From Dehalococcoidia bacterium (GTDB lineage Bacteria; Chloroflexota; Dehalococcoidia; Lucifugimonadales; QGNO01): a stretch of 64,000 bases of DNA. The notes under the pieces are model-generated. The model ran no database searches, was not told the DNA's origin, and worked only from the letters and a program-made list of their open reading frames with translations. Positions 36,537-63,892 of this stretch are shown here, in pieces. The translations under genes were made by a program, and so were the position numbers. Location: the NCBI GenBank assembly GCA_965197965.1, contig OZ240235.1, forward strand, positions 549,820-613,819. The letters run 5' to 3'. Numbering within the stretch: position 1 is the stretch's first letter; every line of letters starts with the position of its first letter.

Positions 36537-36660
36537 CCCATATAAACACTAGAGCCCCTTCATCGTTTTGGTAAGTGCTTAATCACACTCTTAGGACGGC
36601 AAAAGTGTTAGCTCTGAGAGAGAGTGTTTCTGCAACTTTTCGCTCTTGCTGACATAGACG
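36537..36660. repeat. Conserved intergenic cassette, copy A (short form)
   Basis: CCCATATAAACACTAGAGCCCCTTCATCG(T/A)TTTGGTAAGTGCTTAATCACACT...GTTAGCT...AGAGAGTGT(G)TTTCTGCAACTTTT(T/C)GCTCTTGCTGACATAGACG is shared with copies at 46304, 51098 and 62260. It lies ~95 nt upstream of the 34475..36442 start. The minus-strand promoter candidate is TTACCA (36574-36569), 17 nt, then TAGTGT (36551-36546). Confidence 0.8.
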
Positions 36661-36790
36661 CGACCGGGAGATGCCGCTGCCCTCTCCCCCGGCCATCCGC
36701 ATACGCGGGCATTTCTTGTTGCCCGGAAAGACAAGCGCTATGCACCGCCCGATCTATCTTTTAGGCCCGGAACCCTCTATAGCGACGGGA

Positions 36791-39700
36791 CTACTGCCCC
36801 GGCCCGGAAACAGTGAACACCAGACTATTGGACAGCTTTCTGCCGTCCTCCGTGCAGACGGCTCCCTGAGCCTCGCAGTCCGTCGTGACGGGCAGAACGA
36901 TGGTCACATCCTCGCTGGAGTCTGGCCTCACCATTATTCGCCACTTGATGTTGCTTGGCTTGTCCATGCGTTGAGCCTTTAGAATGGACCCACCGGTCAC
37001 AGTAAAGGCATGGAACTTTAGGGTCTTGTAGCTGAGCGGAATTTCCTCGCTGAACCGGATGTCGAATGTGAAGACATTCGAGGCGCCGTGGTGGCCGGCC
37101 ACGGGGAACACCAGGCGGACGGTCAGCGGCGTGGGCTTCGCCGCCACCGCCGCCGTCGCATCGCTGGTCAGCGTCTCATCGTTGTCGGCATCGTCGCGGA
37201 AGGAGACCCGCACTTGGATTGTCTGCCCTTTCTGCATGTCCTTGAGGGTGTAGCTGGAGCCGGTGGCCCCCGAGATGTCCGACCCTCCGGCGGTCCACTG
37301 GTAGCTGTACGAGACGTTGGTCAGCCCGTCCTGGTCGGCGATGTTAGACGTGTCAGCGGTCAGCGTCTGGTCCACCTGGGGCGTCCCGCCGATGGTGGGC
37401 AGTCCGGTGGCCGGAGAGTTGGGCTTGGCCGCAACCACCCCTGTCGCCGCGCTGGTCAGCGATTCGATGTTGTCCCGGTCGTCGGCGAATCTCACCCTTA
37501 CCGTGACGGTCTTGCCCTGCTCGTTGGCGGTGAGGGTGTAGGTCGAGCGGGTGGCCCCGATGGTCAGGCCCCCGGCCCTCCACTGGTAGAAGAAGGTGGC
37601 GTTCGTTATCCCGTCGAGGTCGGAGATGTTCGAGGTGTCCGCCGTCAGCGTCTGGCCCACGCGGGCCGTACCGTCGATGGTGGGCTTGCCGGTGGCCTGA
37701 CGGTTGGGTGCCGCAACCACCGCGCCCGTCGCATCGCTGGTCCGGGCCTCTGCGTTGTTCCGGTCGTCGATGAAGAACACCCTGACCTGGATGGTCTGCC
37801 CCTGCTCGCTGGAGGTGAGCAGGTAGCTGGGTCCGGTGGCTCCGTCGATGTCCGTACCGCCGGAAATCCACTGGTAGCCGTAGGACACGTTGGTCAGCCC
37901 GTCCTGGTCGTCTATGGGCGAGGTGTCCGCAGTCAACGTCTGGTCCACCTGGGGGGTCCCGCCGATGGTGGGCTTGCCCGTGGCCGGGGTGTTCTCGGCT
38001 GGCTCAATCACTCTGACGGCAACCTCATCCCCCTCGGACAAGTCCAGTCCCGGGTCGTTCCACTGGAACTGGATGATGGAGATGGAGTCCCTCTCCAGGG
38101 TCGATGCGTCGGTAGAGGCGAATTCGTCCGTCCCAACCACTAGGACAAAGTCGGCAGCCAATTTTGGCATCACTGAGAGAATCAGCTTGCCGTTCAGAAC
38201 CCCCAAGGCCCTGACGGTGTAGCTGGCATCGTCCAACGTGATGGTGTCGGACGAGAGAGCACCCAGGGTGTTGGTTTCCGGCAAAGACAGGAATGTCGTA
38301 TAGCCGGCAAAATTCTCTCCGCCCCCTACCGTCAAGGTCGCGGACCATATCGGTTCTTCCTGTGGTGTTCCAGAGGCTTCGGCCGACGTGGGAACGCCAA
38401 ACACCCAGGGGCGGGCCTGTTTGATGGACAGAACATCGTCGCTGGTGATCTTGAACTCGATTTCCATTGCGAAGGGTTCGTCGGGTCCGGGGTTGTACAG
38501 ACCCTCGAAATGGTCATGGATATCCTGGAGATGCCGGCGCAACTGGTCAATTTGAGCATCGCTCATGAGGAGTTGTCCTCGCGGCACCTGGTTGGAGGTT
38601 ACCAGGGTGGTGTATGAACCGGACAGGTCCAACAGGATTTCCTCGGGCACCGAGTGTGCGTCGGGATTGGTGACCAGGTCCTCACCCAGTTGCGTGTTGA
38701 CGTAGTAGCTCCCGTCCGTTTCGTAGATAGGGTCGAAGCTGACGGCCACGCCGTTGGCCAGCTCGTCCGAGTAGTTGGGATGGACCAGCACCCCCATCGC
38801 CGTCGCCAGGTGGTCGATGCGGTGGAACTCGCGTTCAGTGAATGCCCGGAAGTTCCACAGGCTGGCCCACACCCCTTTGATGGACTTGTCGATGCCGTCC
38901 TCCTCCGTCTCCTCCGGGTCCTGGGTCTTGGAGTCGTACAGCCCGGCGCCGCTGAAGCCCGGCAGGTCTTCGTTGTTGGTGCTGGACCGGTATCGCAGCG
39001 ATTGCCCTTCAGGGTAGGTGGCGTGCATCTCCTCCAGCGCGTCGATGATCCAGTCGGGCGTCTCCCCCTTCTTTATCTTCTTGCGGAGTTTCTTGAGTTC
39101 TTTCTCTTGAGTGTCATAGTCCGACTGGAAGTCCGGGTCTTCCAGCATCTCTTCGATATCGTCATAGAACCCGTTGTGCTTCATGAACTCGTCGTAGAAG
39201 TAGAAGGGCACCACGAACCCGTCGGGGACGGTTCCGTCGGGAAAACCCAGCGTCCGCAGCACGGCCACGTTGGCCGCCTTGACTCCAAACGCATTCCAGT
39301 CGTCGAAGCCAATGTCGTCCAGGTCGGTGATCTGGGTGACTGTGAGGTCCCGTTCCGGCGTCTGGGTTCCGGGAGGGCGCGAAGCGGCGAAGTAGGCCTC
39401 GACTTCGGCGGGAGTGGCGGCGCGGATGGAGTAGCCGTCCGCCGTGACGCTGTAGTGGACGTATCTGCCGATGAGATCATCGATGTCGCCGTCGTCTAGG
39501 GCGTCGCGAATGAAGGCGTTGGGGACACCGTCCTGGACGGCCCGCAGGTTGACGTGGGAAAGCGGTGTCTGGGGTACGGTGGTGATGAGGCCGGCGACCC
39601 GGGAAAGCTCGTTGGGGATAGTCTCGTAGATCACCACGTCGCGCGGGTCGGGGCGTTCCTCCAGCGACATGAGCCTGAGGAAACCGTACCCTTCCCCAAC

Positions 39701-42700
39701 GTTGAGGGGGAGGAATGGAACATCTGGCAGGATGTCCTCTCTCAACACCACATTGATCCGGGAATCATCGTAGAGGGCCCGTTCTCTGTGATAGAGCGGC
39801 AGGGCTCTCCTCGGCATGGGGTAATAGGCAAGGTTGTCATCAAGCAGCGCCATACTGGCCGCCAAAACCTCATACGAACGGGCCACATGGCCGAAGGGGT
39901 ATGCATCCATAGGCTGGAACTGGTAAAGGTAGACGCCCAGGGAACCATCAGGAGCAACCACATTGGGGTGGTATATGATCTCGCCGCCCATGTACCCCTG
40001 TCCCCAGAGTGGGTCGTCCCAGAGACCGATTGCATCCCCGAAATCGGGATGTATTCGGTGGGTCTCGGTGTTCATGAAATAGATGCCCATGTTGCCGGTA
40101 GACACGCCGATAATGTAGAACTTGACAAACTCCAGGTCCTGGAGATGGCGGTGATAGGGAACGTCTCTGCCCTTGTAGGAAAGCGCCTCAAATGTCTCAC
40201 GGTCTGGAATGGCAACAGCGCCATCAGGAAAAGGGACCGCCCTAGCGGGGTTCAGCGGGTTCATCGTCACCGGGTCCCCCAATTCGGTGATGTCGTCGAT
40301 GCAGTCGTTGTCGATGTCGGCCGGGTCGGCAATGAGGAACTTTTCCACCCGGTAATGTTCCTTGGGGAGCGGGGACAACTGCTCAGTCAGCGTTGTTGTG
40401 CCGTCTTCGCCCAGGGTCACCGAGACCGGGAACTCTCGTTCGGAGTCCAGGGCGGGCCGCACGTAGAGCACAAAGTATTCCTCGGTGGTGGACTCGACGA
40501 TAGCGGGAACGGCTTGAACCTCTACCGCCGTTGCCGCCGTGGCATGCTCGCCGACCGTGCACGCCACGACTGATACCTTGACCGTCCTATCACTGGTCAG
40601 CGCCTCCAGGCTGCCTGCGTCGTCATAGAACGACACCCGCACGCTAATGGTCTTGCCAAGGTCAGCCATAACCAGGGTGTAGGTCGAAGCCGTCGCTCCT
40701 TCGATGTCGGAGGAATTGCTCCCGAAGGGGCTGCGGACCCACTGGAAACTGAACGCGTCATCGTCGAGCCCGTCGGGGTCGGCGACCCCTGACACGTCCG
40801 CCGTCAGCGATTCGCCGACTTGGACGGCGCCGCTAATGACGGGCGCTCCCGTCGCGGCACGGTTGGCGGCCACCCTGAGAATCCTGTCGACGCCGGGTCT
40901 GTTGGAGGTGGCGATGTACAGAGCCCCGTCGGGGCCGAGCACCGGGGTCCGCAGTCGGCCGTGGCTGCCGTCGAGCTCCGGAACGACGATCTGACCCGCG
41001 AAATCGCCCTGTTCGGTGAACTCGAAGACCCGCAGCGACTTCGTCTTGAGCGTGGCCACCGCGAGTCGCCCTTCCCACTCCCCCCATTGGGGGCCCTGCA
41101 GGAAGACGGCCCCGCTGGTCGCCAGGGTGGGGAATCCCGAGGACCATCTGGCCTGGCGGGCAGATGGGAACTTCGCCAGGTCAGTCATGGGGACGCCGGC
41201 CTCGTCGGAATAGTCGTAGAAGACCAACGTGCCGTCGTCCGGGATCGGGTCCCAGCCGTAGTTGCCCCCTGGTGCGAGCAGATTGATCTCGTCGTCGTGT
41301 TTCGGGCCGTGCTCCACCAGCCACATCTGATCCGTGCCCGGGCGCAGAGCCAGGCCCTGGGGGTTGCGGAATCCGTAGGCGTACACCGGCGAGGAGGCGT
41401 CGAATGGATTGCCGGGCGCCCCGGCGCCCGTCCGTGGGTCTACGCGGAGGACCTTGCCGCCCAAGGACGTCAGGTCCTGCGCGCCCGTTACCACCCGCCC
41501 GTCGCCGGTCGCGATCCATAGATATCCCTCCGGACCGAAAAGCAGCCGGCCTCCCGAGTGCCAGGGGCCCGGACCGATCGGCATGCCCTTTACCAGGGGA
41601 TCGACGACGCGTGTGGCTTCGTCGTAGTCCGCGTCGATCGTCCAGGCGATCACCTGCATCTCGCGTCCGGCGTGCCCCTGGAGCGTGTAGAACCGCCGGT
41701 TGGTCGTAAAGTCCGGGTCCACGGCCAGCGCCTGCAGACCGGCGAACCCGTCGACCAACAGATCTCCGAGATCCGCGGCGACCCGCTTGACGGTGCCGTC
41801 GGTCAGCCTCGCGTTCAGCACGCCGGCGCGCTGGGTGAACAGCATCGTCCCGTCTGGGGTGAAATCAATGCCCCAGGGGTAGGACAGGCCCGTGACTATT
41901 TCCGTCACCGTCAGTTCCGGACCCGGCTCGCGGGCGCCCACGACGGCGGGCGAAACAGCTTCCGCGGACTTGCCGGGGCCCTGCCCGTCGGTGTACGACG
42001 CCTCGGCCTTGAGCAGCATCCCTTCGTCTTCTTCAGTTGGAACGTAGCTGTCTCCGTCGTCGTAGGCCTCGACGCCGGTCCAGGCGGTTCCGTCGGAGGA
42101 CCTGGCCCAGCTCCAAGAAACCGCGCCCGAAGACGCCGCAGGGCCCGAGCCGCCGCCCTCGAGGCCGTCGGGATCGCTCAGCGCGGCGCTGACCACCGTC
42201 CCGACCCTCGGCCTCGCCGGAAAGAGCGAAACGGTTCCGGGCCAATCCGCCGCCTTGATAGCCTCGGTGGCCTCGCTGGTCAGCGTTTCATAATTGCCAC
42301 GGTCGTCGACGAACGCCACCCGCACTTTGATCCGCTTGCCCATATCCTCGGCGACGAGCGTGTAGGTGGGCGAGCCGGTCCCGATGTTCGTCTCGGTCGC
42401 GCCGTCGACCCGCATCCACTGGTACGAGTAGGCCGCCCGGGTCAGCCCGTCGTCGTCCGACACGTCGGAGACCGCCGAGGCGAGCGTCCCCTTCACCTGC
42501 GGCGTGCCCGTGACCGTCGCCTCGCCGGCAGCCGGGTTGTTGATGAAGGAGCCTCTCGCCTCGATCTTGTAGGAAAACGCGTCGGAGGCCCATCCCTGAG
42601 CAGCGGCCTGAGGAGAATATGTCGCGCTTCCGTCCGCGATGGACCACCCCTCCGCGGCTCCCGTGTCTTCGGAGCCTCTCGCCGTTCCACTGATGGCGAT

Positions 42701-45976: not shown

Positions 45977-45991
45977 GAATCACCCCTAACC

Positions 45992-46253
45992 GGCCCGGAA
46001 ACAGTGAACACCAGACTATTGGACAGCTTTCTGCCGTCTCCGGTGCAGACGGCCCCGTCAGCGTCGCAGTCCGTCGTGGCGGGCAGAACGATGGTCACAT
46101 CCTCGTTGGAGTCTGGCCTCACCATTATTCGCCACTTGATGTTGCTTGGCTTGTCCATGCGTTGAGCCTTTAGTATGGATCCACCGGTCACAGTAAAGGC
46201 GTGGAACTTTAGCGTCTTGTAGCTGAGGGGAATATCCTCGCTGAACCGGATGT
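45992..46253 (-). pseudogene. Remnant copy of the 3' end of the giant gene (C-terminal domain only)
   Basis: About 260 bp is nearly identical by eye to 36801-37062. Track ORF 45973..46191 reads (M)TGGSILKAQRMDKPSNIKWRIMVRPDSNEDVTIVLPATTDCDADGAVCTGDGRKLSNSLVFTVSGP, against the genuine C-terminus ...VTGGSILKAQRMDKPSNIKWRIMVRPDSSEDVTIVLPVTTDCEAQGAVCTEDGRKLSNSLVFTVSGPGQ. Its TGA overlaps the ATG of the 3061-aa gene (ATGA). Confidence 0.75.
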
Positions 46254-46303
46254 GGAACTTACGACCTCCTCCGCTGTCCCCACGTAGAGCGGCGGCCTGT
46301 GAT

Positions 46304-46957
46304 TCCGCTTATCGTATGGTTCTTCTTACGCATCTACCCATAAGAACACTAGAGCCCCTTCATCGATTTGGTAAGTGCCTAATCACACTGTCGCGGCAGC
46401 AATTTTGTTAGCTTTTAGAGAGTGTGTTTCTGCAACTTTTTGCTCTTGCTAACATAGACGGAAGTGGCTAGATTGGTAGTCATCTACAGACCGCCGTGAC
46501 CGCCAAACACTCCATGGTCTCACGCGCATACCGGAGAGCAGATGTCTCAGCCCGCCTGCGTCTGGCGGAACTGGCGCACCGGCCTTCGGGTTGCCCGGAG
46601 CGATATGTCGTGTATGCGCCGCTATTCCTGCCGCAAAGGCCGGGGGCAGGCCGGCGCGAGGTCGCTGCGCCAGTTCCGCCGGCGGTCCAGTGTCATCTGA
46701 CCGGGCTCCGGCGTCGCTTCGCACCAGGGTTGGGTTGGATATTGGAATAGGGGCCTGACTTGATGAAGGCAGCGTTCGGCGCAATACAGACGCGGGTTCT
46801 TCAGATGCTCTGGCTCGACCCGGGCGAGGCATCGTACGCCGCCAAGGTCACGGTGTGGCTACGCTGGCTATTCTGGGTCGGCGCCGTGATCGAACTCGCC
46901 TATCGCCCGACGTTCACGCAAGCGAAGTACATTCCGTTCATGCTCATGCATGTGCCG
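46304..46957. repeat. Conserved intergenic cassette, copy B (long form, includes duplicated kinase 5' end)
   Basis: It is collinear with 62260-62876, with high identity in the core and in the kinase N-terminal coding part, and a patchy middle. The rightward promoter candidate is TTGCTA (46446-46451), 17 nt, then TAGATT (46469-46474). The leftward candidate is TTACCA (46374-46369), 17 nt, then TAGTGT (46351-46346). Confidence 0.8.
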
Positions 46958-47056
46958 GTGGGCGGACGAGAGACCACGACTCAGGGTCACCAGTCCGGGA
47001 CCGAACCCCTGCTGGACGGGCTAGATGCGGTTCAAGTTATTCAATCACCACTGTAG
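46760..47056 (+). pseudogene. Truncated duplicate of the sensor-kinase N-terminus
   Basis: MKAAFGAIQTRVLQMLWLDPGEASYAAKVTVWLRWLFWVGAVIELAYRPTFTQAKYIPFMLMHVP matches the first ~65 aa of the 62681..63892 kinase. It then diverges and stops. No HisKA or ATPase part is present. Confidence 0.75.
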
Positions 47057-47130
47057 GGACAAGTAGTACCGGGGAGAGACGGGAGGCAGGCATCGCAATC
47101 AGGGAGTTCATACGTGGCCCAGGCCTGACC

Positions 47131-48267: not shown

Positions 48268-48422
48268 CCGTCTCGGATTGACCGATGGCCCCTGCAGGAA
48301 CGACGAGCCGCCAAGCCAACCCTGACGTGACAGAAACCTTGTCCTGTGAGTGAGTGTATCTCGACCTACGGACTAGACCGGCATTGGAGAGTCAGACCTG
48401 AAGTGAAGTCAACCGTACAGCT

Positions 48423-51041: not shown

Positions 51042-51097
51042 AGCAAGGCAGGACTGCCCCACGAGAAATAACCGCCGGACATCCCTGGCAGCAGCCT

Positions 51098-51191
51098 TAT
51101 CACACTGTCGCGGCAGCAATTTTGTTAGCTTTTAGAGAGTGTGTTTCTGCAACTTTTCGCTCTTGCTGACATAAACGGAAGTGGCTAGATT
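51098..51191. repeat. Conserved intergenic cassette, copy C (right half only)
   Basis: ATCACACTGTCGCGGCAGCAATTTTGTTAGCTTTTAGAGAGTGTGTTTCTGCAACTTTTCGCTCTTGCTGACATAAACGGAAGTGGCTAGATT is near-identical to copies B and D. It retains the rightward promoter candidate TTGCTG (51163-51168), 17 nt, then TAGATT (51186-51191). It lacks the leftward half. Confidence 0.8.
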
Positions 51192-51407: not shown

Positions 51408-51491
51408 CAGCTTGAGCCGGGACAGTTGTCTTTGCAGAACTGGCGTCTCCGCATTGCTATACCTGATTGTTCCCCTACCGCGGACTGCGGT

Positions 51492-52322: not shown

Positions 52323-52361
52323 TTTGTCCTCCTTTTTGCCTGCGTTACGCCTCTGCCCCCA

Positions 52362-55300: not shown

Positions 55301-58300
55301 CGTACGTCAGGGTGTCGTTGTCGCGGTCAGTCGCGTGGGTGGGGGCGCCGACGGCCCCGCCTGCGGGGCCCTCCTCGACAGACCATGAGCTGTCCCCCCG
55401 GAACCGTGGCGGCGCGTTGACAATGGGATCAGCCGTTACCTCAGCGGTCTCCCGGCTCAGGGCTGTCTTCCCCGACCCTCTCCGGTCGGTGTAGGTAACC
55501 ATGGCGCGGATCGCCTTCCCCGTGACGTCCTCGTCAACGACCCACGGGAAGGTCGTCGAGGCGGGGGTGAGTACGCCGGAGACCCTCGCCCATGATCCCC
55601 CGGTCGCCTTTGATTGGATAGCCCAGGTCATGCTGGAGGTGTCGATGCTGCCGTCCGGGTCGGTCAGCCTGAATGTCACGGTCTCTCCCGCCGCCGGACT
55701 CAGGTTCTCCACCTCGAGGGTCCCGTCTTCTTCCACGTCCCCGACGGTCACCGTGACGGCGACACTGACGTTCCGGCGGCTGGAGCCGCTCCGGACGTCG
55801 GTGGCGACCACATTGAACTCGTAGACGTTGTCGCCGCCGGAGTCCTCCGGCGCCTCGTAGTTGGGCGTTTTGACGAAGGTGAGCACGCCGTCGGCGCTGA
55901 TGGCAAAATCGCGCCTGTCCGTGCCCGTCCGCGACCAGGTCACGCCGACCTCCTCGTCTTCCGCGTCGTAGTCCGCAAGGTCCATCACAACGTAGTTGGT
56001 GTTCGCATCATGCTCATCGAGGGTTATCGCCGTTTCGGGAGTCCCGGTAAACTCCGGGACCTCGTTCACGTCAGTCACCGTGATGACGACGGCGTAGTCC
56101 GTGGTCTTCTTGTCGGTGGCGTCGTCAAAAGCCCGCACGGTGATGGAGTAGGTGTTGCTGCTGCCGTCACCGACGTCGTCGTCGCGGGGATGCTCGAAGT
56201 TGGGCAGCGGGCCCTGGCCGAAGCCGCTGTCCTGCGTGAAGGTCAGGACGCCCGTTGTGGGGTCGATTTCCAGGTAGGCCGCGTCCGTGCCGACAAGCGC
56301 CCACCCGATGGTGTCCCCAACGTCATAGTCTTCGGCGGTGAAGGTGTGGACGTTGTCCGGCGTCCCCGTGAAGTCGTACTCGATCTCCATGTAGTTCTGC
56401 GGCGCGTTGAAATTCTCGTCGATGTCCGGCCGCTCGTTCACGTCCGTGACCGTGACGACAACCTCGAGCTCCCTGGTGTTCGAGGCGGTGTCCCTGGCCC
56501 TCACGGTGACGTTGTACACGTTGTCTGTGCCGGCATCCGCCGGCATCTCGAAGTTGGGGAAGTTGGGCCGCTGGGCAAACGACAGGACTCCGGTACTGCT
56601 GTCGATGGTGAAGTCGGCGGCGTCCGTGCCCGTCCGCGACCAGGTGATGGTCTGGCCCTCCTCGTCGCGCCCGTCGTAGTCGGCGATGGTGAGGACCGCG
56701 GTCATGGCGTCGTACTCGATCTCCATGAACGAAGGAGCGGTATGGCTCGCGTCCGTGGTCGTGATCTCCGGCGTCTCATCAACGTTGGTGACGGTCACGG
56801 TCACCGTAAATGTCCCGACGCTGTTGCTCTCACCCTGACCGTCATCCGCCTCCACGACGATCTCGTAGGTGTTGCTGGAGCCCATATCGACGGCGTTTTC
56901 GAAGTCCGGACGGATGCTGAAGGAGAGGACGCCGGACGAGCTGTCGATGGTGAAGTGCGCCGCGTCGTCGCCGCTCACGTCCCATGTGATGGTCTGTAGG
57001 TTGGCGTTGTCGCTGTTGTCATCGTCGGTGGCCGAGTAGGTGGCGATAATGTAGTTCGCGGCGGTGAGGTCCGCGTCGAGGACGTCGTACTCGATCTCCG
57101 CGAAGTCCGGGGAGTTGTCGCCGCTGACCACCGGCGTCTCGTTCACGTCCGTCACCGTGACTTGGACCATGAGCGTGGTACCTAGACCGCCGGCGTCCCT
57201 GACCCTTACCGTCACGTCGTACGCGTTGTCGGTGTCGTCGTCGACCGGCATCTCAAAGTTGGGTACGTTCCTGAACTCGAGCTCCCCGTGACCATCGGCG
57301 TTCTTCGTGATGGTGAAGTCGCCCGCGTCATCGCCATGCAGGTCCCACGTCAGCACGCTGTTCGCGTCCGGGTCTGCCGCTTCGTAGGTCTTGATGACCA
57401 CCGAGGTTGCCGTGTTCTCAGCGACGTCGAAGCTCGTGTCGGTCACTTCAAGGGTCGTGATCTTCGGCGGCTCATTGACGTTGGTCACCGTGACCGTGAC
57501 CTCGTGCGTGTCGGGCAGGCCGCCGGCGTCTGTGACCTTCACCGTCACGACGTAGGTGTTGTTCATGGCGGTGCTGCCGACATCGGTCGGCGTCTCGAAG
57601 TCGGGGGCGTTCTTGAAGGTGAGCGCGCCGGTCGTGGAGTCGATGTCGAACTTGCCCCCGTCATCGGCGGTCTCCACGGACCACGTGAGCGTGTCCGACG
57701 CGTCCACGTCAGTCGCCGCAAACGTATGGACGGCGGTCGAGTTCTCGGGCACGGACCTTGTGGCCGGGGGAGACGTGATCACCGGCTCCTCGTTGACGTC
57801 GGTCACGTGGACGTTGACCCCAATGGTGTCTTCCTTCCTTGGAGAACCGTTGTCCCTGACCCTCACGACCAGGACGTATATGTTCCCGTCGACCGAGCCT
57901 TTCGGGTCCTCGAAGTCAGGCACGTTCCTGAACTTGAGCTCCCCTTGCCCCTGGGGGTTGGTCGTGATTCTGAAGTCGCCCGCGTCAGCGCCTTCCAGGC
58001 TCCACGTCAACGTGGTGCTCGCGTCTACGTCGGTCGCTTCGAATGTCTCGATGACCACCGATGTCGCCGTGTTCTCAGCTTCGCTAAGGATGTGGGCTGC
58101 ACCGGAATTAGTCGTGATCTCCGGCGCCTCGTTCACGTTGGTCACCGTGACCGTGAACGTGAGCGTGTCACTCAGGCCGCCGCTGTCGGTGAGCTTCACC
58201 TTCACGACGTAGGTGTTGTTCATGGCAGTGTCGCCAACGTCGGTCGGCGTCTCGAAGTCCGGCTGGTCCTTGAAGGAGAGCATCGTGAGAAAGTCGCTCG

Positions 58301-61300
58301 CGACCTGAAACTTGTCCCCGTCGTCGGTGGACTCCACGGACCAAGTCTGCGTATCCGGCACGTCGACGTCCAACGCCATAAGGAGGATAGTTCCGCTGGA
58401 GTTCTCGGGCACGTTGGGTGCATCCAAAAGGTTCGTGATCTCCGGCGCCTCGTTGACGTTGGTCAGGTTGATGGTCACCGCGATGGTGTCGTCGGTGGCG
58501 GTGTTGGCGTTGCCGGCGGCGTCCTTGCTGTCGCGCACGCTCACGGTCACGCTGTAGCTCTTCTTCGAGGACTCGAAGTTGAAGGTGTGCGTGGACCCGG
58601 TCTTGACCTTGATCTGGCCGTCCGAGTCGATCTCGAAGCGAGCTGCGTCCGCGCCGGTCAGCGAGTAGGTCAGCGTGTCCGAGTCGCCGTCCGTGGCCGT
58701 GATCACGCCCCCGACGACGTCCACCCCGGCGCCGCTGTTCTCCGGCAGGGTGCGCGTGGCCGTCTCCGCGCTGAACTCCGGCTCGGCGTTGCCGGCGCCC
58801 ACCGCGCTGCTCGACACCGCGCTGGCAGTCTTGCCCGAACCCTGGGGATCTGTGTAGGTCACCGTGGCCCGCAGGTACTTGCCCACGTCCGCGGCGACCG
58901 GCGTGTAGCCGGCGGTGATGGCCCCGCTGATATCGTTGAACGACCCGGTGGCCGTGCTCCCCCTCGCCCATCGCCACGAAGCGCCGGAGACGGTCCCGTC
59001 AAGGTCGCTCACCGATGCCGTGGCCGCCGTACCCCCGGTGAACGTGGCCGGCAGCGTCACCGTCCCGGCCTCGTCCAGGTTGTTGACGGAGATGGTGACG
59101 GCAATCGTGGCGTCGACGGTGGTGTCGGCCACGCCGACGGCGTTCTTGCCGTCGTGCACGGTCACGTTCACCGAGTAGCTGCTATCGGTCTCAAAGTCCA
59201 GGGAGGCGCTCGTCTTCAGCTGGCCGCTGGCCGTGTCGATGGTGAAGGATGACGCGTCCGTGCCGGTCAGCCCGTAGACCAGCGTATCGCTTTCGGGGTC
59301 GGTGGCCGCGACGGCAGCGCCGATGTCGGCGGCCGAGGCTGTGTTCTCGTCCACGCTGCGCGTCGTGGGCGCGGTGTCGGTGAACTCCGGCGGGTTGTTG
59401 ACCACCTCCAGCAGGTAGACGACGGTCTCCTCGCCTACGGTCCACTCGACGTCCTCGGCGACGGCCGGCCAGAGCAAGAACATTTGGCCCCCAGCCTTGT
59501 TTATTGAGATGTCGTCGTCCGACACAAGCCACTCGCGGCCCGTGTCGACGATCCACGCCTCCTCTTCGTTAGCGCCCGGAATCGGGCTCATGGTGATAGC
59601 GAGTCCGGTGCTCGGGACAGGGCCGAAATCTATTTGGTCGAACGCGTAGGTGTCCGAACCGTAGGTGAACGACGAGGGGCTGAGGGAACCGTCAGTGCCG
59701 GCGGTGTTTACGCCGATCGCGCCGAAGCCGCGGTCCGCGGGCGTGAGCGTTCCCACCCAGAGCAGCTTCCGCGTGGCGCCGGAGGCGACCACCTCGTGGG
59801 TCTCGGCGCTGGTCAGCGACTCCGAGTAGCCCTCGACGTCGGTAAACGTCACCGTGAGGCTGATGGCGTCTCTCACCTCGGATGCCGTGAGCGTGTAGGT
59901 CGATGAGGTCGCGCCGGATATGGCCGTGCCGTCGGCGAGCCACTGGTAGGAGAGCGTGCCCAGGCCGTCGGCGTCGGCGATGCCCGCGGTGTCCGCCGTC
60001 AGGACCTCGTCCTGCTGAAGCACGCCGCTGATGGAGGGCGCGCCGGTGGCGAAGTTGTTGTCGGCGTCAGTGCCCTTGACCTCAATGAGGAGGGGACGCA
60101 TGTTGCTGAACCACCGACCTGGATTGGAAGACACAGGACCCTGACGCTGCGTGTGGCCATCTCCGATGGACCAGCCCGCCGCGCCGCCGGGGTCCTCTGC
60201 GTCGTTGTCGGTTGCGGACAGGTAAGTGAATGTCCTCGAGTCGTTCTTGAGGAGAACCCAATAGGTGGTGCCCGCATGAAGCGTGGGGCAGGTTGTGCCC
60301 ATGGTTGGGGCGGCAAATGCGTGCAGCCCGGAGCCGCCGAAGGTCGCCGGGTTGGCCAGGCTACACAGCTCGGCACTGTCGCCGTCCGCGTTCAGCGTCG
60401 CGCTGATACGGTTGGCGGCTGGCGAGAGGTTGTTCGCGGTGCTGAAGAAGTGAACGCCGATCGAGTCCAGGGTATAGCCGCCGGTGTTCGCGCCGGTTGT
60501 GAATCCCTGGGCAATTAGGTCAGGGCTTTGCGAATCAAAATCCTCGCCGGAACTCCTGCGGGTCTGCCTCGTGTTCCTGACCAGGACGTCGGCCGGGACA
60601 ATGGTGTCGGACAGTGCGCTGGAGAGCGGCCCCTCGGCGTTGGTGAGGTCGTCGGTGAAGGTGACGTCCACCCTGATCCGCCTCTCCGCGTCGTCGTCCA
60701 TGAGGGTGTAGGTGGAGGAGTCCGTGCCGATGTTGGTGGTGCTGCCGCCGACGACGCGGACCCACTGGTAGGTGAATGTCGCGGAGGTCGTCCCGTCGTC
60801 GTCCATGATGGCCGAGGTGTCCGCGGTGAGCTCCTCGCCCACGCGCGGAGTGCCGGTGATTGTCGGCGCGCCGGTGGCCGGGTTGTTGATTGCGTAGCCC
60901 CTGACGGCCAGCTGGTGGTTAAAATTGGCGTTTGCTACCCACGCGGCCCCGGGGTTCACAACCACATAGCTGCTATCCCCGATTGTCCAGCCCGTCGCGC
61001 CGCCGGTGTCCTCGCCGTCCGCGGCAGTAACGTCCAAAGACATCGTGGATGTTGCGGTGTTCGCCACCCGCTGAACCACCGCAAAGTAGGTCTTGTTCGC
61101 CTCCAGCGTTGGGCACGAGTCCGTGGTCGACGCGTCGAAGGTCTGCACGCCCGAGCCGGAGAAGGTCCCCGGGTCGATCAGCGTGCACAGCGCAGCGTCC
61201 GGATTGGTGCTGCTGTCCACCCCGTTCAGCGTCACAGCCAGGTCGCCGCCGGCTGTCGAGGTGCTGGCGATGCCGCCGAAGCTGAAGCCGATGGAGCCCA

Positions 61301-62072
61301 GCGTGTATCCGGCGGGGTTGGCGCCGGTGGTGAACGCCTGGGCACGCTTGGAGTTGCCACCGACGCCCAGACCGTAGTCACCGCTGTCGGTTTGCCCCGT
61401 GTTCTTGATCAGGACGGGTGGGACTATCACGGAGCCCTTGACCTCGATCAGGAGGGCCGCTGCCTCTTCTGACCATTCCATGCCATCATAGGTGAAGGCC
61501 AAGCCGTCCACTTCCCAGCCCGCCGCAGCGCCGGAGTCCTCGGCAGCGCTAATGGTTTGGTCGACAGCGATTGCGCCTGTATTGGTGTTCGCCCGCTCGA
61601 TGACAGCGAAGTAGAGCGTTTCCGGCAGAAGCGTGGGGCACGGGTCCGTGGTTGGCACATCGAAGGTTTGCACGCCTGAGCCGGAGAAGGTCCCCGGGTC
61701 GGTGAGCGTGCACAGCGGACTGTTTGGCGCGTCGACGGAGTAAGTCTCATCAAAGGTCGCGTCGTAAAGCTTGACCGTCAGCTCGGCCCCTGCCGTCGTG
61801 GTGTCGCCGATGGTCCGGAATCTGATGCCGATGGAGCTCAGCGTGTAGCCGGAGGCGTGGGCGCCGGTGGTGAATCCCTGGGCTTGGCCGGGGAACGAGG
61901 CGTTAATCAAACCACTTGTACCAGTGGCGGCCTGCCCCGTGTTCTTGACCAGGACGGTGGCCGTCTGCGCCTGGACCGTCGATGACCAGAGGAGCACGCC
62001 GCCCAGGGCCAGCAGGGCGAGCAGTGCGATGAGCACCCGGGGGAGCGGCGCAAAGCGCCGGGAGGTGGTCAT
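52362..62072 (-). CDS. Giant secreted cadherin-repeat protein (3236 aa)
   Basis: The signal peptide is MTTSRRFAPLPRVLIALLALLALGGVLLWSSTVQAQ.
- Four ~190-aa N-terminal repeats (NTGQ...AQ(G/A)FTTG...GYTL.SIG..F...LCTL.DPGTFSGSGVQTFD) at ~59600-61960.
- Two YQW modules.
- About 16 cadherin-type repeats with (T)V(T)(N/D)VNE.P linkers, interleaved with 5 'W(Q/R)WARS' ~95-aa modules, at ~52900-59400.
- A Gly14 run (52833-52874).
- A C-terminal EF-hand/dockerin-like segment YDFNRNGTIEKDEVLAAVSDYFAG. Confidence 0.85.
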   Translation of the reverse strand: MTTSRRFAPLPRVLIALLALLALGGVLLWSSTVQAQTATVLVKNTGQAATGTSGLINASFPGQAQGFTTGAHASGYTLSSIGIRFRTIGDTTTAGAELTVKLYDATFDETYSVDAPNSPLCTLTDPGTFSGSGVQTFDVPTTDPCPTLLPETLYFAVIERANTNTGAIAVDQTISAAEDSGAAAGWEVDGLAFTYDGMEWSEEAAALLIEVKGSVIVPPVLIKNTGQTDSGDYGLGVGGNSKRAQAFTTGANPAGYTLGSIGFSFGGIASTSTAGGDLAVTLNGVDSSTNPDAALCTLIDPGTFSGSGVQTFDASTTDSCPTLEANKTYFAVVQRVANTATSTMSLDVTAADGEDTGGATGWTIGDSSYVVVNPGAAWVANANFNHQLAVRGYAINNPATGAPTITGTPRVGEELTADTSAIMDDDGTTSATFTYQWVRVVGGSTTNIGTDSSTYTLMDDDAERRIRVDVTFTDDLTNAEGPLSSALSDTIVPADVLVRNTRQTRRSSGEDFDSQSPDLIAQGFTTGANTGGYTLDSIGVHFFSTANNLSPAANRISATLNADGDSAELCSLANPATFGGSGLHAFAAPTMGTTCPTLHAGTTYWVLLKNDSRTFTYLSATDNDAEDPGGAAGWSIGDGHTQRQGPVSSNPGRWFSNMRPLLIEVKGTDADNNFATGAPSISGVLQQDEVLTADTAGIADADGLGTLSYQWLADGTAISGATSSTYTLTASEVRDAISLTVTFTDVEGYSESLTSAETHEVVASGATRKLLWVGTLTPADRGFGAIGVNTAGTDGSLSPSSFTYGSDTYAFDQIDFGPVPSTGLAITMSPIPGANEEEAWIVDTGREWLVSDDDISINKAGGQMFLLWPAVAEDVEWTVGEETVVYLLEVVNNPPEFTDTAPTTRSVDENTASAADIGAAVAATDPESDTLVYGLTGTDASSFTIDTASGQLKTSASLDFETDSSYSVNVTVHDGKNAVGVADTTVDATIAVTISVNNLDEAGTVTLPATFTGGTAATASVSDLDGTVSGASWRWARGSTATGSFNDISGAITAGYTPVAADVGKYLRATVTYTDPQGSGKTASAVSSSAVGAGNAEPEFSAETATRTLPENSGAGVDVVGGVITATDGDSDTLTYSLTGADAARFEIDSDGQIKVKTGSTHTFNFESSKKSYSVTVSVRDSKDAAGNANTATDDTIAVTINLTNVNEAPEITNLLDAPNVPENSSGTILLMALDVDVPDTQTWSVESTDDGDKFQVASDFLTMLSFKDQPDFETPTDVGDTAMNNTYVVKVKLTDSGGLSDTLTFTVTVTNVNEAPEITTNSGAAHILSEAENTATSVVIETFEATDVDASTTLTWSLEGADAGDFRITTNPQGQGELKFRNVPDFEDPKGSVDGNIYVLVVRVRDNGSPRKEDTIGVNVHVTDVNEEPVITSPPATRSVPENSTAVHTFAATDVDASDTLTWSVETADDGGKFDIDSTTGALTFKNAPDFETPTDVGSTAMNNTYVVTVKVTDAGGLPDTHEVTVTVTNVNEPPKITTLEVTDTSFDVAENTATSVVIKTYEAADPDANSVLTWDLHGDDAGDFTITKNADGHGELEFRNVPNFEMPVDDDTDNAYDVTVRVRDAGGLGTTLMVQVTVTDVNETPVVSGDNSPDFAEIEYDVLDADLTAANYIIATYSATDDDNSDNANLQTITWDVSGDDAAHFTIDSSSGVLSFSIRPDFENAVDMGSSNTYEIVVEADDGQGESNSVGTFTVTVTVTNVDETPEITTTDASHTAPSFMEIEYDAMTAVLTIADYDGRDEEGQTITWSRTGTDAADFTIDSSTGVLSFAQRPNFPNFEMPADAGTDNVYNVTVRARDTASNTRELEVVVTVTDVNERPDIDENFNAPQNYMEIEYDFTGTPDNVHTFTAEDYDVGDTIGWALVGTDAAYLEIDPTTGVLTFTQDSGFGQGPLPNFEHPRDDDVGDGSSNTYSITVRAFDDATDKKTTDYAVVITVTDVNEVPEFTGTPETAITLDEHDANTNYVVMDLADYDAEDEEVGVTWSRTGTDRRDFAISADGVLTFVKTPNYEAPEDSGGDNVYEFNVVATDVRSGSSRRNVSVAVTVTVGDVEEDGTLEVENLSPAAGETVTFRLTDPDGSIDTSSMTWAIQSKATGGSWARVSGVLTPASTTFPWVVDEDVTGKAIRAMVTYTDRRGSGKTALSRETAEVTADPIVNAPPRFRGDSSWSVEEGPAGGAVGAPTHATDRDNDTLTYGIQSGGDSAYFEIDPSTGQVRLAQALDFETTPGPLFFYLTLHDGKGVDANNAEIDDSSIDATRSATISVVDVEEDGVVTLSTDEPETGMPLTATLEDGDGVVTGEIWQWARSENGRTGWTNISGATSSSYTPTVADEDFFLRATVTYTDRRGAGKSAEAVTDDPVPSENRRPRFPSTETGQRTVPENSRAGANIGAPVAADDSENDSLTYTLTGSDAAAFTIVETTGQIRVKDDLDYETKPSYSFTIEVHDGRDGSGATSTTIDDTQAVTITVENVEEPGTITLTTDTQSIQARVEVTAALEDDDIPSGVTWQWSRSPNGRTDWVNIQGATLAAYTPTLEEDRGNYIRATASYTDGHGPNKTANAVSARVGDPPPVNSEPVFPSTEDGRREVEENSAEDSAVGTPVAATDLNAGDSAVNDPLAYSLSGTDVASFTIDSSTGQISLAAGAQLDYEDKRTYRVTVEVTDGRDQNGDDDMDAIDDSQNVTITVTNVNEAPEVTGDATVSYQEDANRAIATYTGTDPERDTLTWSVSSDDFWISQRGQLYFRTPPSYETQTSYQVTVTATDDDVTTPLSGTLDVTVTVTDAEEEGAVVITPPRGWVNVLTEFMAVLTDDDGGVTGETWQWARSPNGRSSWTDIAGETSSSYTVTADDANQYLRASASYEDRRGSNKTASAVLSSPVGDTRPAANTAPEFTETAPVTRKVSAGTASGRNVGSRVRATDADQGDVLTYSLSGTDGDAFDIDAATGQIRTKDVLEHDPDPDGDNTYEVMVSVHDGFDGGYNESSASDATIEVTITVTAASSARPPQGGGGGGGGGGGGGGVTVPEVDPPSFAEGSSTTRLLPASARPGDAVGKPLVATHPTYSGFTYLLSGTDSTKFTVDESTGQIRVGQEVSLEEGDTYDVTLRASVARVGGSTITVEIGVSIRVTEPEPPAIRYDFNRNGTIEKDEVLAAVSDYFAGLIEKNDVLALVARYFAV

Positions 62073-62300
62073 GACCTACCCCCGGCTAGCCGAGTCCAAA
62101 AATCGGGGGCTGACAGGGGTATTGCCGTCACCGTTAAAGCGTCTCTTACGTTTCCGTTCGGCATCTTTACGTCGTCAGGTGAAACCTTGGGCTAACCACT
62201 CGCCAGCTTGAGACCCCCGTATGCAATCACTGTCCTATCGCAGAGTGGCAGCCTGAGGGTCCGCTTATCGTATGGTCTTCTTACGCATCCACCCATATAA

Positions 62301-62329
62301 ACAGTAGAGCCCCTTCATCGATTTGGTAA
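62301..62329 (-). promoter_or_regulatory. Candidate leftward promoter for the 3236-aa gene
   Basis: On the minus strand: TTACCA (62329-62324), a 17-nt spacer, then TACTGT (62306-62301). The same geometry is conserved in copies A and B (-10 TAGTGT). It would give a ~230-nt 5' UTR. Confidence 0.3.
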
Positions 62330-62400
62330 GTGCTTAATCACACTGTCGCGGCAGCAATTTTGTTAGCTTTTAGAGAGTGTGTTTCTGCAACTTTTTGCTC

Positions 62401-62429
62401 TTGTGGACACAAACAAAAGTGGCTAGATT
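62401..62429 (+). promoter_or_regulatory. Candidate rightward promoter for the kinase/regulator operon
   Basis: TTGTGG (62401-62406), a 17-nt spacer, then TAGATT (62424-62429). The -10 and spacing are conserved in copies B and C (-35 TTGCTA / TTGCTG). About 250 nt of leader precede ATG 62681. Confidence 0.35.
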
Positions 62430-62680
62430 AGTAGCATCTTCACACCGTCGTGACCGCCAAACACTCCTTGGTCTCACGCGCAAACCGGAGAGGAGATGTC
62501 TCAGCCACATTGCCTAAGCCGGGGCCTGCGTCCAATCAGAGCAGCCGCCAGCGTCTTTGGCATGAGCGTCGAGCCGCTCATCCGCCTCAGACTCGGACTG
62601 GCTGGGATGCACCGCTATTCCCGCTGGGGGCAGGTCGGCGCCAGGGTTAGGTTGGGTGTTGGAAGAGGGGCCTGTACTTT

Positions 62681-63892
62681 ATGAAGACATCGATGGGCGC
62701 AATACAGACGCGGCTTCTCCAGATGCTCTGGCTCGACCCGGACGAGGCATCGTACGCCGCCAATATCACGGTGTGGCTACGCTGGCTCTTCTGGGTCGGC
62801 GCCGTGATCGAGCTTGCCTATCGACCGGCGTTCACGCATGCCAAGTACATTCCGTTCATGCTCATGCACGTGCCGCTGGTCGCGCTCAACGGCTATGTGC
62901 ACTACCGTCTGCTCTCCCGGCGCAGGGTGACGTGGCGTCACCTGCTCCTCCTCAGCGCCATGGACATAGCCCTGATCACGGCCAGCGTCGTCGTCGATGG
63001 TGGTTTCGACACCTTCCTCTACATCCCCTACTATCCCGCCCTTGCCGCCTTTGCCGCCATCTTCACCTCCGCTCTGCTGAATCTCACCTGGACTACGATC
63101 ACAGCCTCCACATACGTCGGCGTGAGCTTGATCATGGGCATGGGCTTCGATGGGATCAATGAGAAGATGCTGTTCTCCAGGGTGCTCGCGATGTTTGGGG
63201 TTGTCCTGGCTGTCAACTTCATCACCCGGTTTCAACGGCGCAGGGCGAGAGCGGCGATGGAACGGGAGCGGGAGCTGCAACGGGAACGGATCGAGCTCTC
63301 TCAGACGATTCACGATACGGTCGCCCAGACCGCCTTCATGATCGGCCTGGGGATAGACGCGGCCAAGCAGGTTGCCGGAGACTCGAACGAGGAGCTCACC
63401 GCCAGGCTCGATGCGACCTCACGGCTTTCCAAGATCTCCGTCTGGCAGTTGAGACACTCGATAGACATGGGCCGCATCTTCGAGGGTAGTGAGCTGGGCT
63501 GGACCCTGGACTCGCACGTTGCGACGTTCAGGACCATCACGTCGGTGTCGGCGGAGCTGACTCAGAACGGGGCGGAGCCGCCACTTTCGATGGAGGCTAA
63601 GAGTCTCCTGTTCTCCATAGCCCACAACGCCCTCGCCAACGCCTTTCGCCATGCCTGGGCGAGCCGGGTGCTGGTCGAGCTCGACTTCGGACGGGATGAG
63701 CTCAGGTTGTCGGTGTCGGACGACGGGGCGGGGCTTCCCGACGACTACGAGGAGCGCGGCCACGGCTTCGCAAATATGCGGGCGTACGCCGAACGTCTGG
63801 GCGGACGGCTTATCGTCGAGCCCAGGGGACCGGACGGGGGCGCGAGCGTGACCTGCCTGATGCCATTGTCTCGCGATAGAAAGGAGGGATAG
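62681..63892 (+). CDS. Sensor histidine kinase, HisKA_3 (NarX/LiaS-like) type, polytopic N-terminal domain
   Basis: 403 aa with ~5-6 hydrophobic segments. The H-box is LSQTIHDTVAQTAF. The ATPase motifs are HNALANAFRHA, SVSDDGAGLP and GHGFANMRAYAERLGGRL. Confidence 0.85.
   Translation: MKTSMGAIQTRLLQMLWLDPDEASYAANITVWLRWLFWVGAVIELAYRPAFTHAKYIPFMLMHVPLVALNGYVHYRLLSRRRVTWRHLLLLSAMDIALITASVVVDGGFDTFLYIPYYPALAAFAAIFTSALLNLTWTTITASTYVGVSLIMGMGFDGINEKMLFSRVLAMFGVVLAVNFITRFQRRRARAAMERERELQRERIELSQTIHDTVAQTAFMIGLGIDAAKQVAGDSNEELTARLDATSRLSKISVWQLRHSIDMGRIFEGSELGWTLDSHVATFRTITSVSAELTQNGAEPPLSMEAKSLLFSIAHNALANAFRHAWASRVLVELDFGRDELRLSVSDDGAGLPDDYEERGHGFANMRAYAERLGGRLIVEPRGPDGGASVTCLMPLSRDRKEG

Follow-up and report, generated by a model that had tools for sequence, protein, structure and literature searches.

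A non-coding block of about 300 bases occurs four times, always in one orientation, in a 64,000-nucleotide stretch of a Dehalococcoidia contig (the window), which raises the question of what this block, here called the cassette, does and why it is repeated. On balance, the cassette probably serves in uncultured Dehalococcoidia as a two-way promoter and control region shared by a giant surface-protein gene and a sensor-kinase/regulator operon, with its copies also marking sites of module recombination.

Cassette copies and their neighbouring genes

The first-pass annotation had reported four copies, A (36537–36660), B (46304–46957), C (51098–51191) and D (62260–62876), and all were found at these coordinates. 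The 25-nt right-half core GTGTTTCTGCAACTTTTYGCTCTTG occurs exactly four times in the window (at 36624, 46424, 51141 and 62379), and the left-half core TAGAGCCCCTTCATCGATTTGGTAAGTGC has three occurrences, one each in A, B and D; for each, shuffles of the window give an expectation of zero. Both partial copies are as originally described: the homology of C, a right half lacking the left-half core, starts at about 51098 and stops immediately past the plus-strand −10 element, and the similarity of A ends before that element, at 36660, within the plus-promoter spacer. B and D remain homologous past the leader and into the first ~65 histidine kinase codons, to 46957 and 62876, respectively (repeat families D8 and D19). 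Copy D is apparently a full and intact cassette. The copies and surrounding genes are:

34475–36442, minus: LRR protein of 655 aa with a signal peptide; predicted minus-strand target of copy A
36467–36660, no strand: copy A, left-only cassette, with minus leader and promoter, central inverted repeat and R block; its ortholog is the left-only copy in locus L006
36791–45976, minus: giant LRR/GSDH/PPDK_N protein of 3061 aa with a signal peptide; predicted minus-strand target of copy B
46268–46571, no strand: copy B, full cassette; limits are those of the nhmmer match, with B–D homology continuing to 46957
46760–47056, plus: truncated kinase N-terminus remnant that follows copy B and is homologous to the D kinase up to 46957
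51098–51191, no strand: copy C, right-only cassette downstream of an MMPL gene, with inverted repeat (51101–51108 and 51136–51143), R block and plus promoter
52362–62072, minus: giant cadherin-repeat protein of 3236 aa with a signal peptide; predicted minus-strand target of copy D
62227–62495, no strand: copy D, full cassette, from the minus-strand leader through the end of the plus-strand leader
~62437–62495, plus: plus-strand leader, with Shine-Dalgarno sequence GGAGAGGAG
62496–62684, plus: 62-codon upstream ORF, whose TGA overlaps the kinase ATG
62681–63892, plus: HisKA_3/HATPase_c histidine kinase (domain match; homologs found)
63894–64000, plus: NarL-type (REC + GerE) response regulator, start only, the gene being cut by the window end

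In type-a modules, the ATG equivalent to that of the D upstream ORF starts the kinase itself. The adjacent NarL-type regulator named in the first reading is borne out by its REC and GerE domains, and full-length orthologs match PF00072 and PF00196. Regulator amino-acid identity across modules is 81–100% (mean of 93% in the receiver domain); the DNA-binding domain hardly differs from module to module, and its HTH recognition helix is nearly invariant among the module sequences inspected.

Predicted divergent promoter elements in a constant gene context

Hexamers in A, B and D on the minus strand (TTACCA, 17 nt, TA(G/C)TGT) and in B, C and D on the plus strand (TTG(C/T)(T/G)(A/G), 17 nt, TAGATT) were read at the sites at which they had been proposed, with the proposed spacers, giving these predicted promoters:

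36546–36574, minus: copy A promoter, −35 TTACCA (36574–36569), 17 nt, −10 TAGTGT (36551–36546), toward the LRR gene at 34475–36442
46346–46374, minus: copy B promoter, TTACCA (46369–46374), 17 nt, TAGTGT (46346–46351), toward the giant gene at 36791–45976
62301–62329, minus: copy D promoter, TTACCA (62329–62324), 17 nt, TACTGT (62306–62301), toward the giant cadherin gene at 52362–62072
46446–46474, plus: copy B promoter, TTGCTA (46446–46451), 17 nt, TAGATT (46469–46474)
51163–51191, plus: copy C promoter, TTGCTG (51163–51168), 17 nt, TAGATT (51186–51191)
62401–62429, plus: copy D promoter, TTGTGG (62401–62406), 17 nt, TAGATT (62424–62429)

The two −35 hexamers lie ~71 bp apart. A simple scan with the E. 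coli consensus flagged neither cassette promoter, because each fits just 7–8 of 12 consensus positions. The surroundings fit the predicted promoters: the plus leader carries a Shine-Dalgarno sequence and an ATG, and all three minus-strand genes begin with signal peptides.

Related genomes extend this pattern. The survey comprised 22 loci (L001–L022) from ~19 Dehalococcoidia MAGs, including extra copies in L003 and L004, to which seven more diverged loci (L032–L038) were added through kinase homologs; the invariance of a 21-nt core in L001–L022 was imposed by the search pattern and reflects ascertainment bias. The most diverged copies retain minus TTACCA-17-TAnnGT and plus TTGnnn-17-TAGATT; L035 keeps both 17-nt spacings although its minus spacer sequence is wholly different, and the minus −10 varies only at positions 3–4 (TAGTGT, TACTGT, TACCGT, TATTGT). 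Among eight copies found outside the search pattern, the four hexamers have 0.83–0.92 identity to the consensus, compared with 0.68 for the minus spacer, 0.71 for the middle and 0.65 for the segment past the −10; the contrast between hexamers and spacers is small, and the plus spacer (0.84) is as conserved as the hexamers. The paired hexamers are read as two putative back-to-back σ70-like promoters.

More than 30 cassette copies, in ~25 related Dehalococcoidia assemblies, are all flanked by a surface-protein gene on the minus strand and a kinase/regulator operon on the plus strand. Throughout L001–L022 and L032–L038 the orientation is constant, with the surface-protein gene (its product a giant secreted protein of LRR, cadherin or ankyrin type) on the left and a HisKA_3 kinase followed by a NarL-type REC-GerE regulator on the right. 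Left-only copies (window A, L006, L018, the second copy of L004 and the inverted second copy of L003, which is upstream of an ankyrin lipoprotein gene) precede minus-direction genes only and end at, or shortly before, the plus −10. Right-only copies (window C and L001) face the plus direction only and are preceded by a same-strand MMPL gene. Comparison supports the main first-pass reading, a duplicated bidirectional control region, through the constant divergent context, the retained hexamers and 17-nt spacings, and the retention of the gene-facing half in partial copies.

Recombination junctions and the nature of the conserved centre

Cassette copies are also recombination and gene-conversion junctions, marking where gene modules recombined. 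Window C and its ortholog L001, which has the left flank of C and an intact kinase/regulator operon to its right, are 98–100% identical over the 600 nt before the cassette, 86–88% identical within it and unrelated beyond; window A and L010 show a similar pattern. Recombination breakpoints fall within cassettes. B, C and D share the same central 60 nt, from which L001 differs, and the two modules L014 and L019 of one genome, whose sensor halves are unrelated, match at 100% in a transmitter segment. Gene conversion and recombination between copies account for much of the uniformity of the cassette. A mobile or recombination-prone element had been offered as the alternative to a control region; the mobile part falls, since copies keep one context and have no sharp ends, and the recombination-prone part is upheld by the mosaic and breakpoint patterns. 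The two alternatives had been posed as mutually exclusive; on the present reading, control region and recombination junctions hold together.

Such homogenisation, seen in B, C and D and in the L014/L019 transmitter, is what would be expected if the cassette were neutral repeat DNA carried with duplicated modules, with only its promoters functional and its centre conserved through youth and gene conversion. Four-fold degenerate sites in orthologous genes of the source genomes have an identity of 0.81–0.97 (~0.90 in the neighbouring regulator gene), equal to or above the cross-species identity of the cassette (~0.72 pairwise, gaps counted); as the source genomes are close relatives, cassette conservation is no better than neutral and by itself no proof of constraint. 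Moreover, the "invariant" core varies freely in L035, L033 and the second copies of L003 and L004. Nevertheless, the centre is the sole part common to all copies, left-only and right-only included, even the most diverged copies retain the inverted-repeat arms, and each of the three larger indels in the centre measures about one helical turn, although a 1-nt length difference is also seen. We consider the neutral reading rather unlikely.

The elements of this centre are:

62331–62389, no strand: copy D central imperfect inverted repeat, 17-nt arms (62331–62347 and 62373–62389) 76% complementary by the repeat tool; candidate regulator-binding region
46384–46426, no strand: copy B central inverted repeat, CACACTGT (46384–46391) and AGAGTGTG (46419–46426), in a stretch identical in B, C and D
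62379–62403, no strand: R block GTGTTTCTGCAACTTTTTGCTCTTG, lying upstream of the plus −35 and running into it; shared by A, B, C and D

The 8-nt arms first noted in D (62339–62346 and 62374–62381) are indeed complementary at 7 of 8 positions and 27 nt apart. Every copy, left-only and right-only alike, contains the inverted repeat and flanking blocks, with the R block GTGTTTCTGCAACTTTTTGCTCTTG variable in copies found without its search pattern. Across 26 copies, 93% of arm cells are complementary, without covariation. The arm-to-arm distance ranges from ~16 to 40 nt, which is a poor fit to a simple, single dimeric operator. Distances from GGTAAGTG to the CTCTTG anchor fall into classes of 54, 64/65, 75 and 77 nt; these steps of ~10–12 nt, behind which lie only three independent indel events, suggest a DNA-level binding region in which helical phase between sites matters. 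The central region may thus be bound by the highly conserved regulator.

The centre might instead act as a structured RNA on the plus strand, whether a small RNA, a long 5′ leader of the kinase operon or a terminator/insulator hairpin with a U-rich tract, and every variant of the central region does fold into a hairpin, with a possible second one at GCAACTTTTCG...CGAAAGTGGC. Owing to G-U pairs, folding is better on the plus than on the minus strand; window A and its close ortholog L006 differ by one U:A to C:G exchange, and in C and L001 a hairpin and UUUCU lie immediately downstream of the MMPL gene. The signature of RNA structure is missing, however. Against shuffles, neither strand folds with a strong z-score (most values run from −0.2 to −2.7), and RNAalifold gives a consensus of just −9.2 kcal/mol and a covariation term of −0.55. 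None of the pairs shows a change on both sides in 26 copies, and shuffled sequences score as well as the real alignment; a register shift by 2 leaves 86% of cells paired, which points to a pyrimidine tract opposite a purine tract. A terminator scan of D found none, and the centre is upstream of both conserved promoters. A known RNA family, raised by the first-pass annotation as an exclusion to be made, is ruled out, as Rfam gave no match to the cassette at a cutoff as loose as E ≤ 10. The RNA reading is accordingly given a low probability.

A MITE-like non-autonomous element with outward-facing promoters is very improbable and was rejected: there are multiple copies per genome, some partial, the cassette has a weak quasi-palindromic character overall (aligned with its reverse complement, it scores ~2.2 SD above shuffles) and IS elements lie near certain copies (L005, L033/L034), but gene context and orientation are identical for every copy, homology runs on through the leaders on either side and into the kinase gene without defined ends, no sharp-ended terminal inverted repeats were found, no transposase is associated with the cassette, viral contigs contain no copies and JGI metagenomes gave chance coding matches only. 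A DGR repeat reading of the cassette was likewise rejected.

Proposed control and known systems

We favor the shared control region. The repeated module consists of a gene for a secreted giant adhesin-like protein (LRR, cadherin or ankyrin) reading leftward, and a HisKA_3 kinase followed by a NarL/LuxR-type regulator reading rightward, with predicted divergent σ70-type promoters, a conserved leader after each and, between them, the imperfect inverted repeat and two conserved blocks. The module's own response regulator would bind this inter-promoter region and control both directions, such that the kinase/regulator operon would be autoregulated and the surface-protein gene co-regulated. Duplication of the module has yielded several cassette copies, which undergo homologous recombination and convert one another because they are long and nearly identical; these exchanges account for within-genome uniformity and for the partial copies (A cut in the plus promoter, C a right half, B with a truncated kinase).

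Correia elements of Neisseria are promoter-carrying MITEs. The cassette resembles them as short repeated non-coding DNA of inverted-repeat character that can give neighbours promoters, but has no defined ends, target duplications or scatter and, among the copies examined, never lies outside the module context. In Dehalococcoides, of the same bacterial class, rdhAB operons have an adjacent two-component or MarR regulator and form many paralogous regulator-plus-target modules in recombination-prone regions. The pairing of a regulator with a neighbouring divergent target in many paralogs is shared; targets there are reductive dehalogenases, whereas here they are surface proteins, and here the regulator and intergenic DNA are near-identical, with just the sensor half and target gene differing.

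The regulator BvgA of Bordetella belongs to the NarL/FixJ family. In the bvgAS-fhaB locus (B. bronchiseptica cluster), as here, a giant secreted adhesin gene is divergent from a two-component operon. BvgA binds a heptanucleotide inverted repeat well upstream of fhaB, centred at −88.5, and weaker sites that extend as far as the fhaB −35 (PMC2225982); relative to the predicted starts, the inverted repeat here is centred at ~−66 on the minus and ~−77 on the plus strand, and the conserved blocks extend to both −35 hexamers. The present modules differ in belonging to an unrelated phylum, Chloroflexota, with no sequence homology, in having a membrane HisKA_3 kinase rather than a BvgS-type phosphorelay, and in being multi-copy with interchangeable sensors and adhesins; their promoters and binding are predicted only. 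The cassette itself is uncharacterised; the kind of system to which it would belong is already known, with bvgAS-fhaB as its apparent analogue.

Cassette copies and their gene setting

A non-coding cassette of about 300 bases, carrying two putative back-to-back promoters, is predicted to serve a giant surface-protein gene in one direction and a two-component operon (HisKA_3 kinase and REC-GerE regulator) in the other; gene, cassette and operon together make up a module. All four copies claimed in the first-pass annotation were recovered on one shared strand (A, 36467–36660; B, 46268–46571; C, 51098–51191; D, 62227–62495), and the hexamer pairs, 17-nt spacers and inverted repeat that it described lie exactly where it had placed them. 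When the window was compared with itself, one repeat-finder family (D8) joined all four sites and another (D19) extended the similarity between B and D to 46964 and 62882. Over the whole window the 25-nt core of the right half is present four times and no more, and the 29-nt core of the left half three times, where shuffled versions of the window lead one to expect neither. The genes around the copies are as follows.

34475–36442, minus strand: LRR protein gene with a signal peptide, left of A
36791–45976, minus strand: gene for a 3061-aa protein with LRR, GSDH and PPDK_N domains and a signal peptide, left of B
52362–62072, minus strand: gene for a 3236-aa cadherin-repeat protein with a signal peptide, left of D
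62496–62684, plus strand: 62-codon upstream ORF, right of D and preceded by a conserved leader with a Shine-Dalgarno sequence
62681–63892, plus strand: HisKA_3 kinase gene, right of D, after the upstream ORF
from 63894, plus strand: start of the response regulator gene, right of D, after the kinase

Copy B has the same leader as D but is followed only by a truncated kinase N-terminus. Copy C, which comes after a plus-strand MMPL gene, lacks the left half and has no gene on its right, and copy A is cut within the plus-promoter spacer, giving way there to the 3′ flank of the giant gene.

The two giant genes starting at 45976 and 62072 (minus strand) encode similar SRR signal peptides (MTASRRLAPLP and MTTSRRFAPLP), which recall twin-arginine signals; the LRR gene starting at 36442 (minus strand) opens with MTIRRPKM, in which RR is present and SRR is absent. 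The gap between the giant gene's start and cassette B contains what is left of the C-terminal domain of a giant protein, 268 nt long (45990–46257). This remnant is 94% identical to the giant gene's own 3′ end (36799–37066) and is probably the relic of a deleted upstream paralog; a DGR TR/VR pair was rejected for this repeat because the mismatches hit all bases and are not adenine-specific. About 14 tandem units of 24 nt (51583–51918) lie inside overlapping ORFs of both strands, and a homolog of the minus-strand ORF over them (51492–52322) adjoins the giant cadherin gene in the related locus L020.

Related copies were collected by three routes. An exact-pattern scan, run on a single genome from each species, gave 22 loci (L001–L022), all within about 19 Dehalococcoidia MAGs; a profile search of the retrieved loci gave two further copies; and kinase homologs (67–75% identity) led to seven more diverged cassette-bearing loci (L032–L038). 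The core pattern found nine matches in a metagenome scan, all of them chance matches inside unrelated sequences, and no match in a scan of viral contigs. Downstream on the plus side, every full-length copy has the kinase/regulator operon, reduced to a remnant in L002, L005, L013 and L020; in the operon the cognate regulator, with REC and a GerE-type HTH, is encoded directly after the kinase. On the minus side most have a surface-protein gene (types include LRR, cadherin, FN3, Big_2 and ankyrin), several loci have no clear gene, and L033 and L034 carry an IS3-family insertion in its place. Partial copies retain the gene-facing half, the exception being window copy C, with no downstream plus-strand gene: left-only copies (window copy A, L006, L018, the second copy in L004 and an inverted second copy in L003) precede minus-direction genes only and stop at the plus −10 or just short of it, and the right-only copies (window copy C and L001) both follow an MMPL gene. 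Only the centre, which runs from ATCACAC to the plus −35 region, is found in every copy. In L005, L018 and L020, otherwise unrelated cassette-adjacent ORFs open with the same seven residues (MALDRPV), which implies another short common DNA segment near some cassettes.

The predicted promoter pair and the region between

All full copies carry TTACCA-17-TA(G/C)TGT on the minus strand and TTGnnn-17-TAGATT on the plus strand, a predicted divergent σ70-type pair with spacers inside the 17 ± 1 nt range. The hexamers match the consensus (TTGACA/TATAAT) at 7–8 of 12 positions, and because the match is no closer than this, a strict scan with the E. coli consensus flagged neither promoter. The four most conserved blocks among the diverged copies each hold one of the hexamers: GGTAAGTG the minus −35, ACAnTAG the minus −10, CTCTTGC the plus −35 and GGCTAGATT the plus −10; the minus −10 varies at its middle positions only. 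In eight copies that were not selected by the search pattern, the hexamers are 0.83–0.92 identical to the consensus of the copies, with values of 0.68 for the minus spacer, 0.71 for the middle and 0.65 for the segment after the −10. Hexamers and spacing are kept while the minus spacer drifts; the contrast between hexamers and spacers is real but modest, because the plus spacer is also 0.84 identical in the same eight copies. In L035 the minus spacer has been replaced by a different sequence, yet both 17-nt spacings are retained.

Several copies are rearranged at or near the promoters. L017 (minus strand, starting some 20 nt beyond the core match, 6540–6561) has an 18-nt tandem duplication that includes the plus −10, with TAGATTAGTAGTCATCTC present twice, and in L033 and L034 (3440–3860) the whole central region is tandemly duplicated. 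In L035 (2210–2300) the core TTTCTGCAAC is replaced by TGACGTCAAA, giving the perfect palindrome TGACGTCA, with both promoters and spacings retained. A palindromic origin of the whole cassette, by ancient inverted duplication of a promoter and its leader, was unconvincing, at just about 2.2 SD above shuffles.

The centre, positioned upstream of both promoters, holds an inverted repeat that can be extended to 17-nt arms at 76% complementarity. Its arms stand about 16–40 nt apart, at a distance that shifts in steps of about 11 nt, and not at the fixed short spacing of half-sites in a NarL-LuxR-type operator. Measured from anchor to anchor, the centre falls into length classes of 54, 64/65, 75 and 77 nt; these steps of about one helical turn, which rest on three independent indels, suggest that proteins may bind along one constant side of the helix.

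A hairpin is possible in all variants of the centre, with the better fold on the plus strand; by explicit counting over 26 copies, 93% of the cells in the repeat are complementary. Folding z-scores against shuffles lie between −0.2 and −4.6 (plus strand) and between +1.0 and −4.6 (minus strand) and are mostly weak, and the RNAalifold consensus of the centre (−9.2 kcal/mol) has a covariation term near nil. None of the eight outer-stem pairs is changed on both sides in the 26 copies, shuffles equal the real alignment, and a register shifted by two is still 86% complementary. Pairing without covariation, and nearly as complete in a shifted register, means that the "stem" is a conserved pyrimidine tract opposite a conserved purine tract. 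The evidence for RNA structure in the cassette is weak, and a structured RNA is unlikely: single folds, shuffle z-scores, RNAalifold and pair counting brought out no covariation. The cassette also matches no known RNA family, a point that the first-pass annotation had set for checking: at an E-value of 10 or less, copy D gave a single chance miRNA match outside the core, and over the whole window the Rfam covariance models reached gathering score only at two tRNA genes.

19772–19843, minus strand: tRNA gene (Rfam, gathering score)
24814–24885, plus strand: tRNA gene (Rfam, gathering score)

No intrinsic terminator (G+C-rich hairpin and U run) was found in a scan of 62000–62750 around D, and the stem of the inverted repeat is A/U- and G-U-rich; no more than a weak terminator-like site follows the giant gene close to copy A.

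Mosaic modules and recombination

The identity profile between module types is sharply mosaic.

Identity between module types, by segment
Cassette: 75–92%
Kinase sensor half: 36–46% (aa), 0.32–0.53 at four-fold sites; essentially unrelated
Transmitter half and regulator: 90–100%
Beyond the regulator: abruptly unrelated

In one genome (OZ240224.1), the loci L014 and L019 have unrelated sensors beside a 100% identical transmitter segment. Mosaic kinases are also seen in the pairs L019/L022, L004/L003 and L008/L007, with unrelated sensor halves and 90–100% nucleotide identity in transmitter and regulator. By sequence comparison the mosaic kinases point to gene conversion or sensor swapping, and a literature search on either process in kinases returned nothing relevant. 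Window copy C and L001 are 98–100% identical over the 600 nt up to the cassette, 86–88% identical within it and unrelated past it; copy A and L010 follow the same pattern, and the central 60 nt are identical among B, C and D and different in the ortholog L001. The mosaic profile, these two breaks and the uniform centre of B, C and D together identify the cassettes as homologous-recombination junctions and gene-conversion tracts, which accounts for the partial copies in the window. The alternative put forward in the first-pass annotation, a mobile or recombination-prone element, therefore held in its recombination part only: a MITE or other non-autonomous transposon was rejected, since sharp ends, terminal inverted repeats and unrelated contexts were not found, the context being constant and homology grading into flanking leaders and genes.

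An unlikely extension of the recombination reading is that a system diversifying the modules by recombination uses the cassette and the near-identical transmitter-plus-regulator block as its two homology arms, with cassette uniformity selected for the exchangeability of modules and no mere by-product. If this were true, crossovers or conversion in the arms would swap sensor halves and giant adhesin genes within and between genomes, and all variants would remain wired to one common regulator and one promoter region.

Type-b modules (window 62496–62684 and 46542–46759; L004, L008–L011, L017, L019, L032) have a G+C-rich insert of roughly 150–385 nt between a conserved start codon (MSQ) and the beginning of the kinase; the insert creates the upstream ORF, which in D encodes 62 aa and has a stop overlapping the kinase ATG; in type-a modules the kinase itself begins at the ATG that opens the type-b upstream ORF. 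The insert of B has a long perfect stem and a folding energy of −117 kcal/mol (z −2.6). The minus-strand leader of L011 contains, about 150 nt left of the core (5716–5737, plus strand, locus coordinates), 22 nt that run the opposite way from those of every other copy (TCCACCTGCGGACAGCGGAGGA vs. TCTTCCGCTGTCCGCAGGTGGA elsewhere), resembling a flipped hairpin loop.

Conservation of the cassette means less than first appears. Orthologous genes among the source genomes are 0.81–0.97 identical at four-fold degenerate sites and the adjoining regulator gene about 0.90; cassette pairwise identity is about 0.72, gaps counted. Because the four-fold-site identity of neighbouring genes is so high (0.8–0.97), cross-species conservation was abandoned as proof of constraint. 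The search pattern itself forced the invariance of a 21-nt core in L001–L022, and copies found by other routes vary within it. A 22-nt block that seems "perfectly conserved" over about 19 species largely reflects how closely the species are related, together with gene conversion and ascertainment by pattern.

Proposed control of the giant surface-protein genes

The NarL-type regulator of the module most likely binds the region between the promoters, where the inverted repeat is a candidate site; its DNA-binding domain is near-identical across all modules. Relative to the predicted starts of transcription, the inverted repeat has its centre at about −66 (minus) and −77 (plus), and the conserved blocks that flank it have theirs at about −42 (L block) and −52 (R block; 62379–62403 in D). 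Positions such as these are common locations of activator sites. The cassette would be a precise control point for the giant proteins, with two promoters and one candidate regulator site in about 150 bp, and the predicted regulon would connect several kinases, their sensor halves unrelated, to a single shared type of regulator. The giant proteins of LRR, cadherin and ankyrin type probably make up the cell-surface and host-contact repertoire of this uncultured lineage, and unrelated sensor halves amid 90–100% identical surroundings provide a concrete pattern of two-component module evolution.

The closest analog is bvgAS-fhaB of Bordetella, where a two-component operon likewise diverges from the gene of a giant adhesin and BvgA binds an upstream heptad inverted repeat and weaker sites as far as −35 (PMC2225982). 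The cassette is an uncharacterised new example of this known kind of control region; its more unusual aspect is the multi-copy, recombining arrangement with swapped sensor halves.
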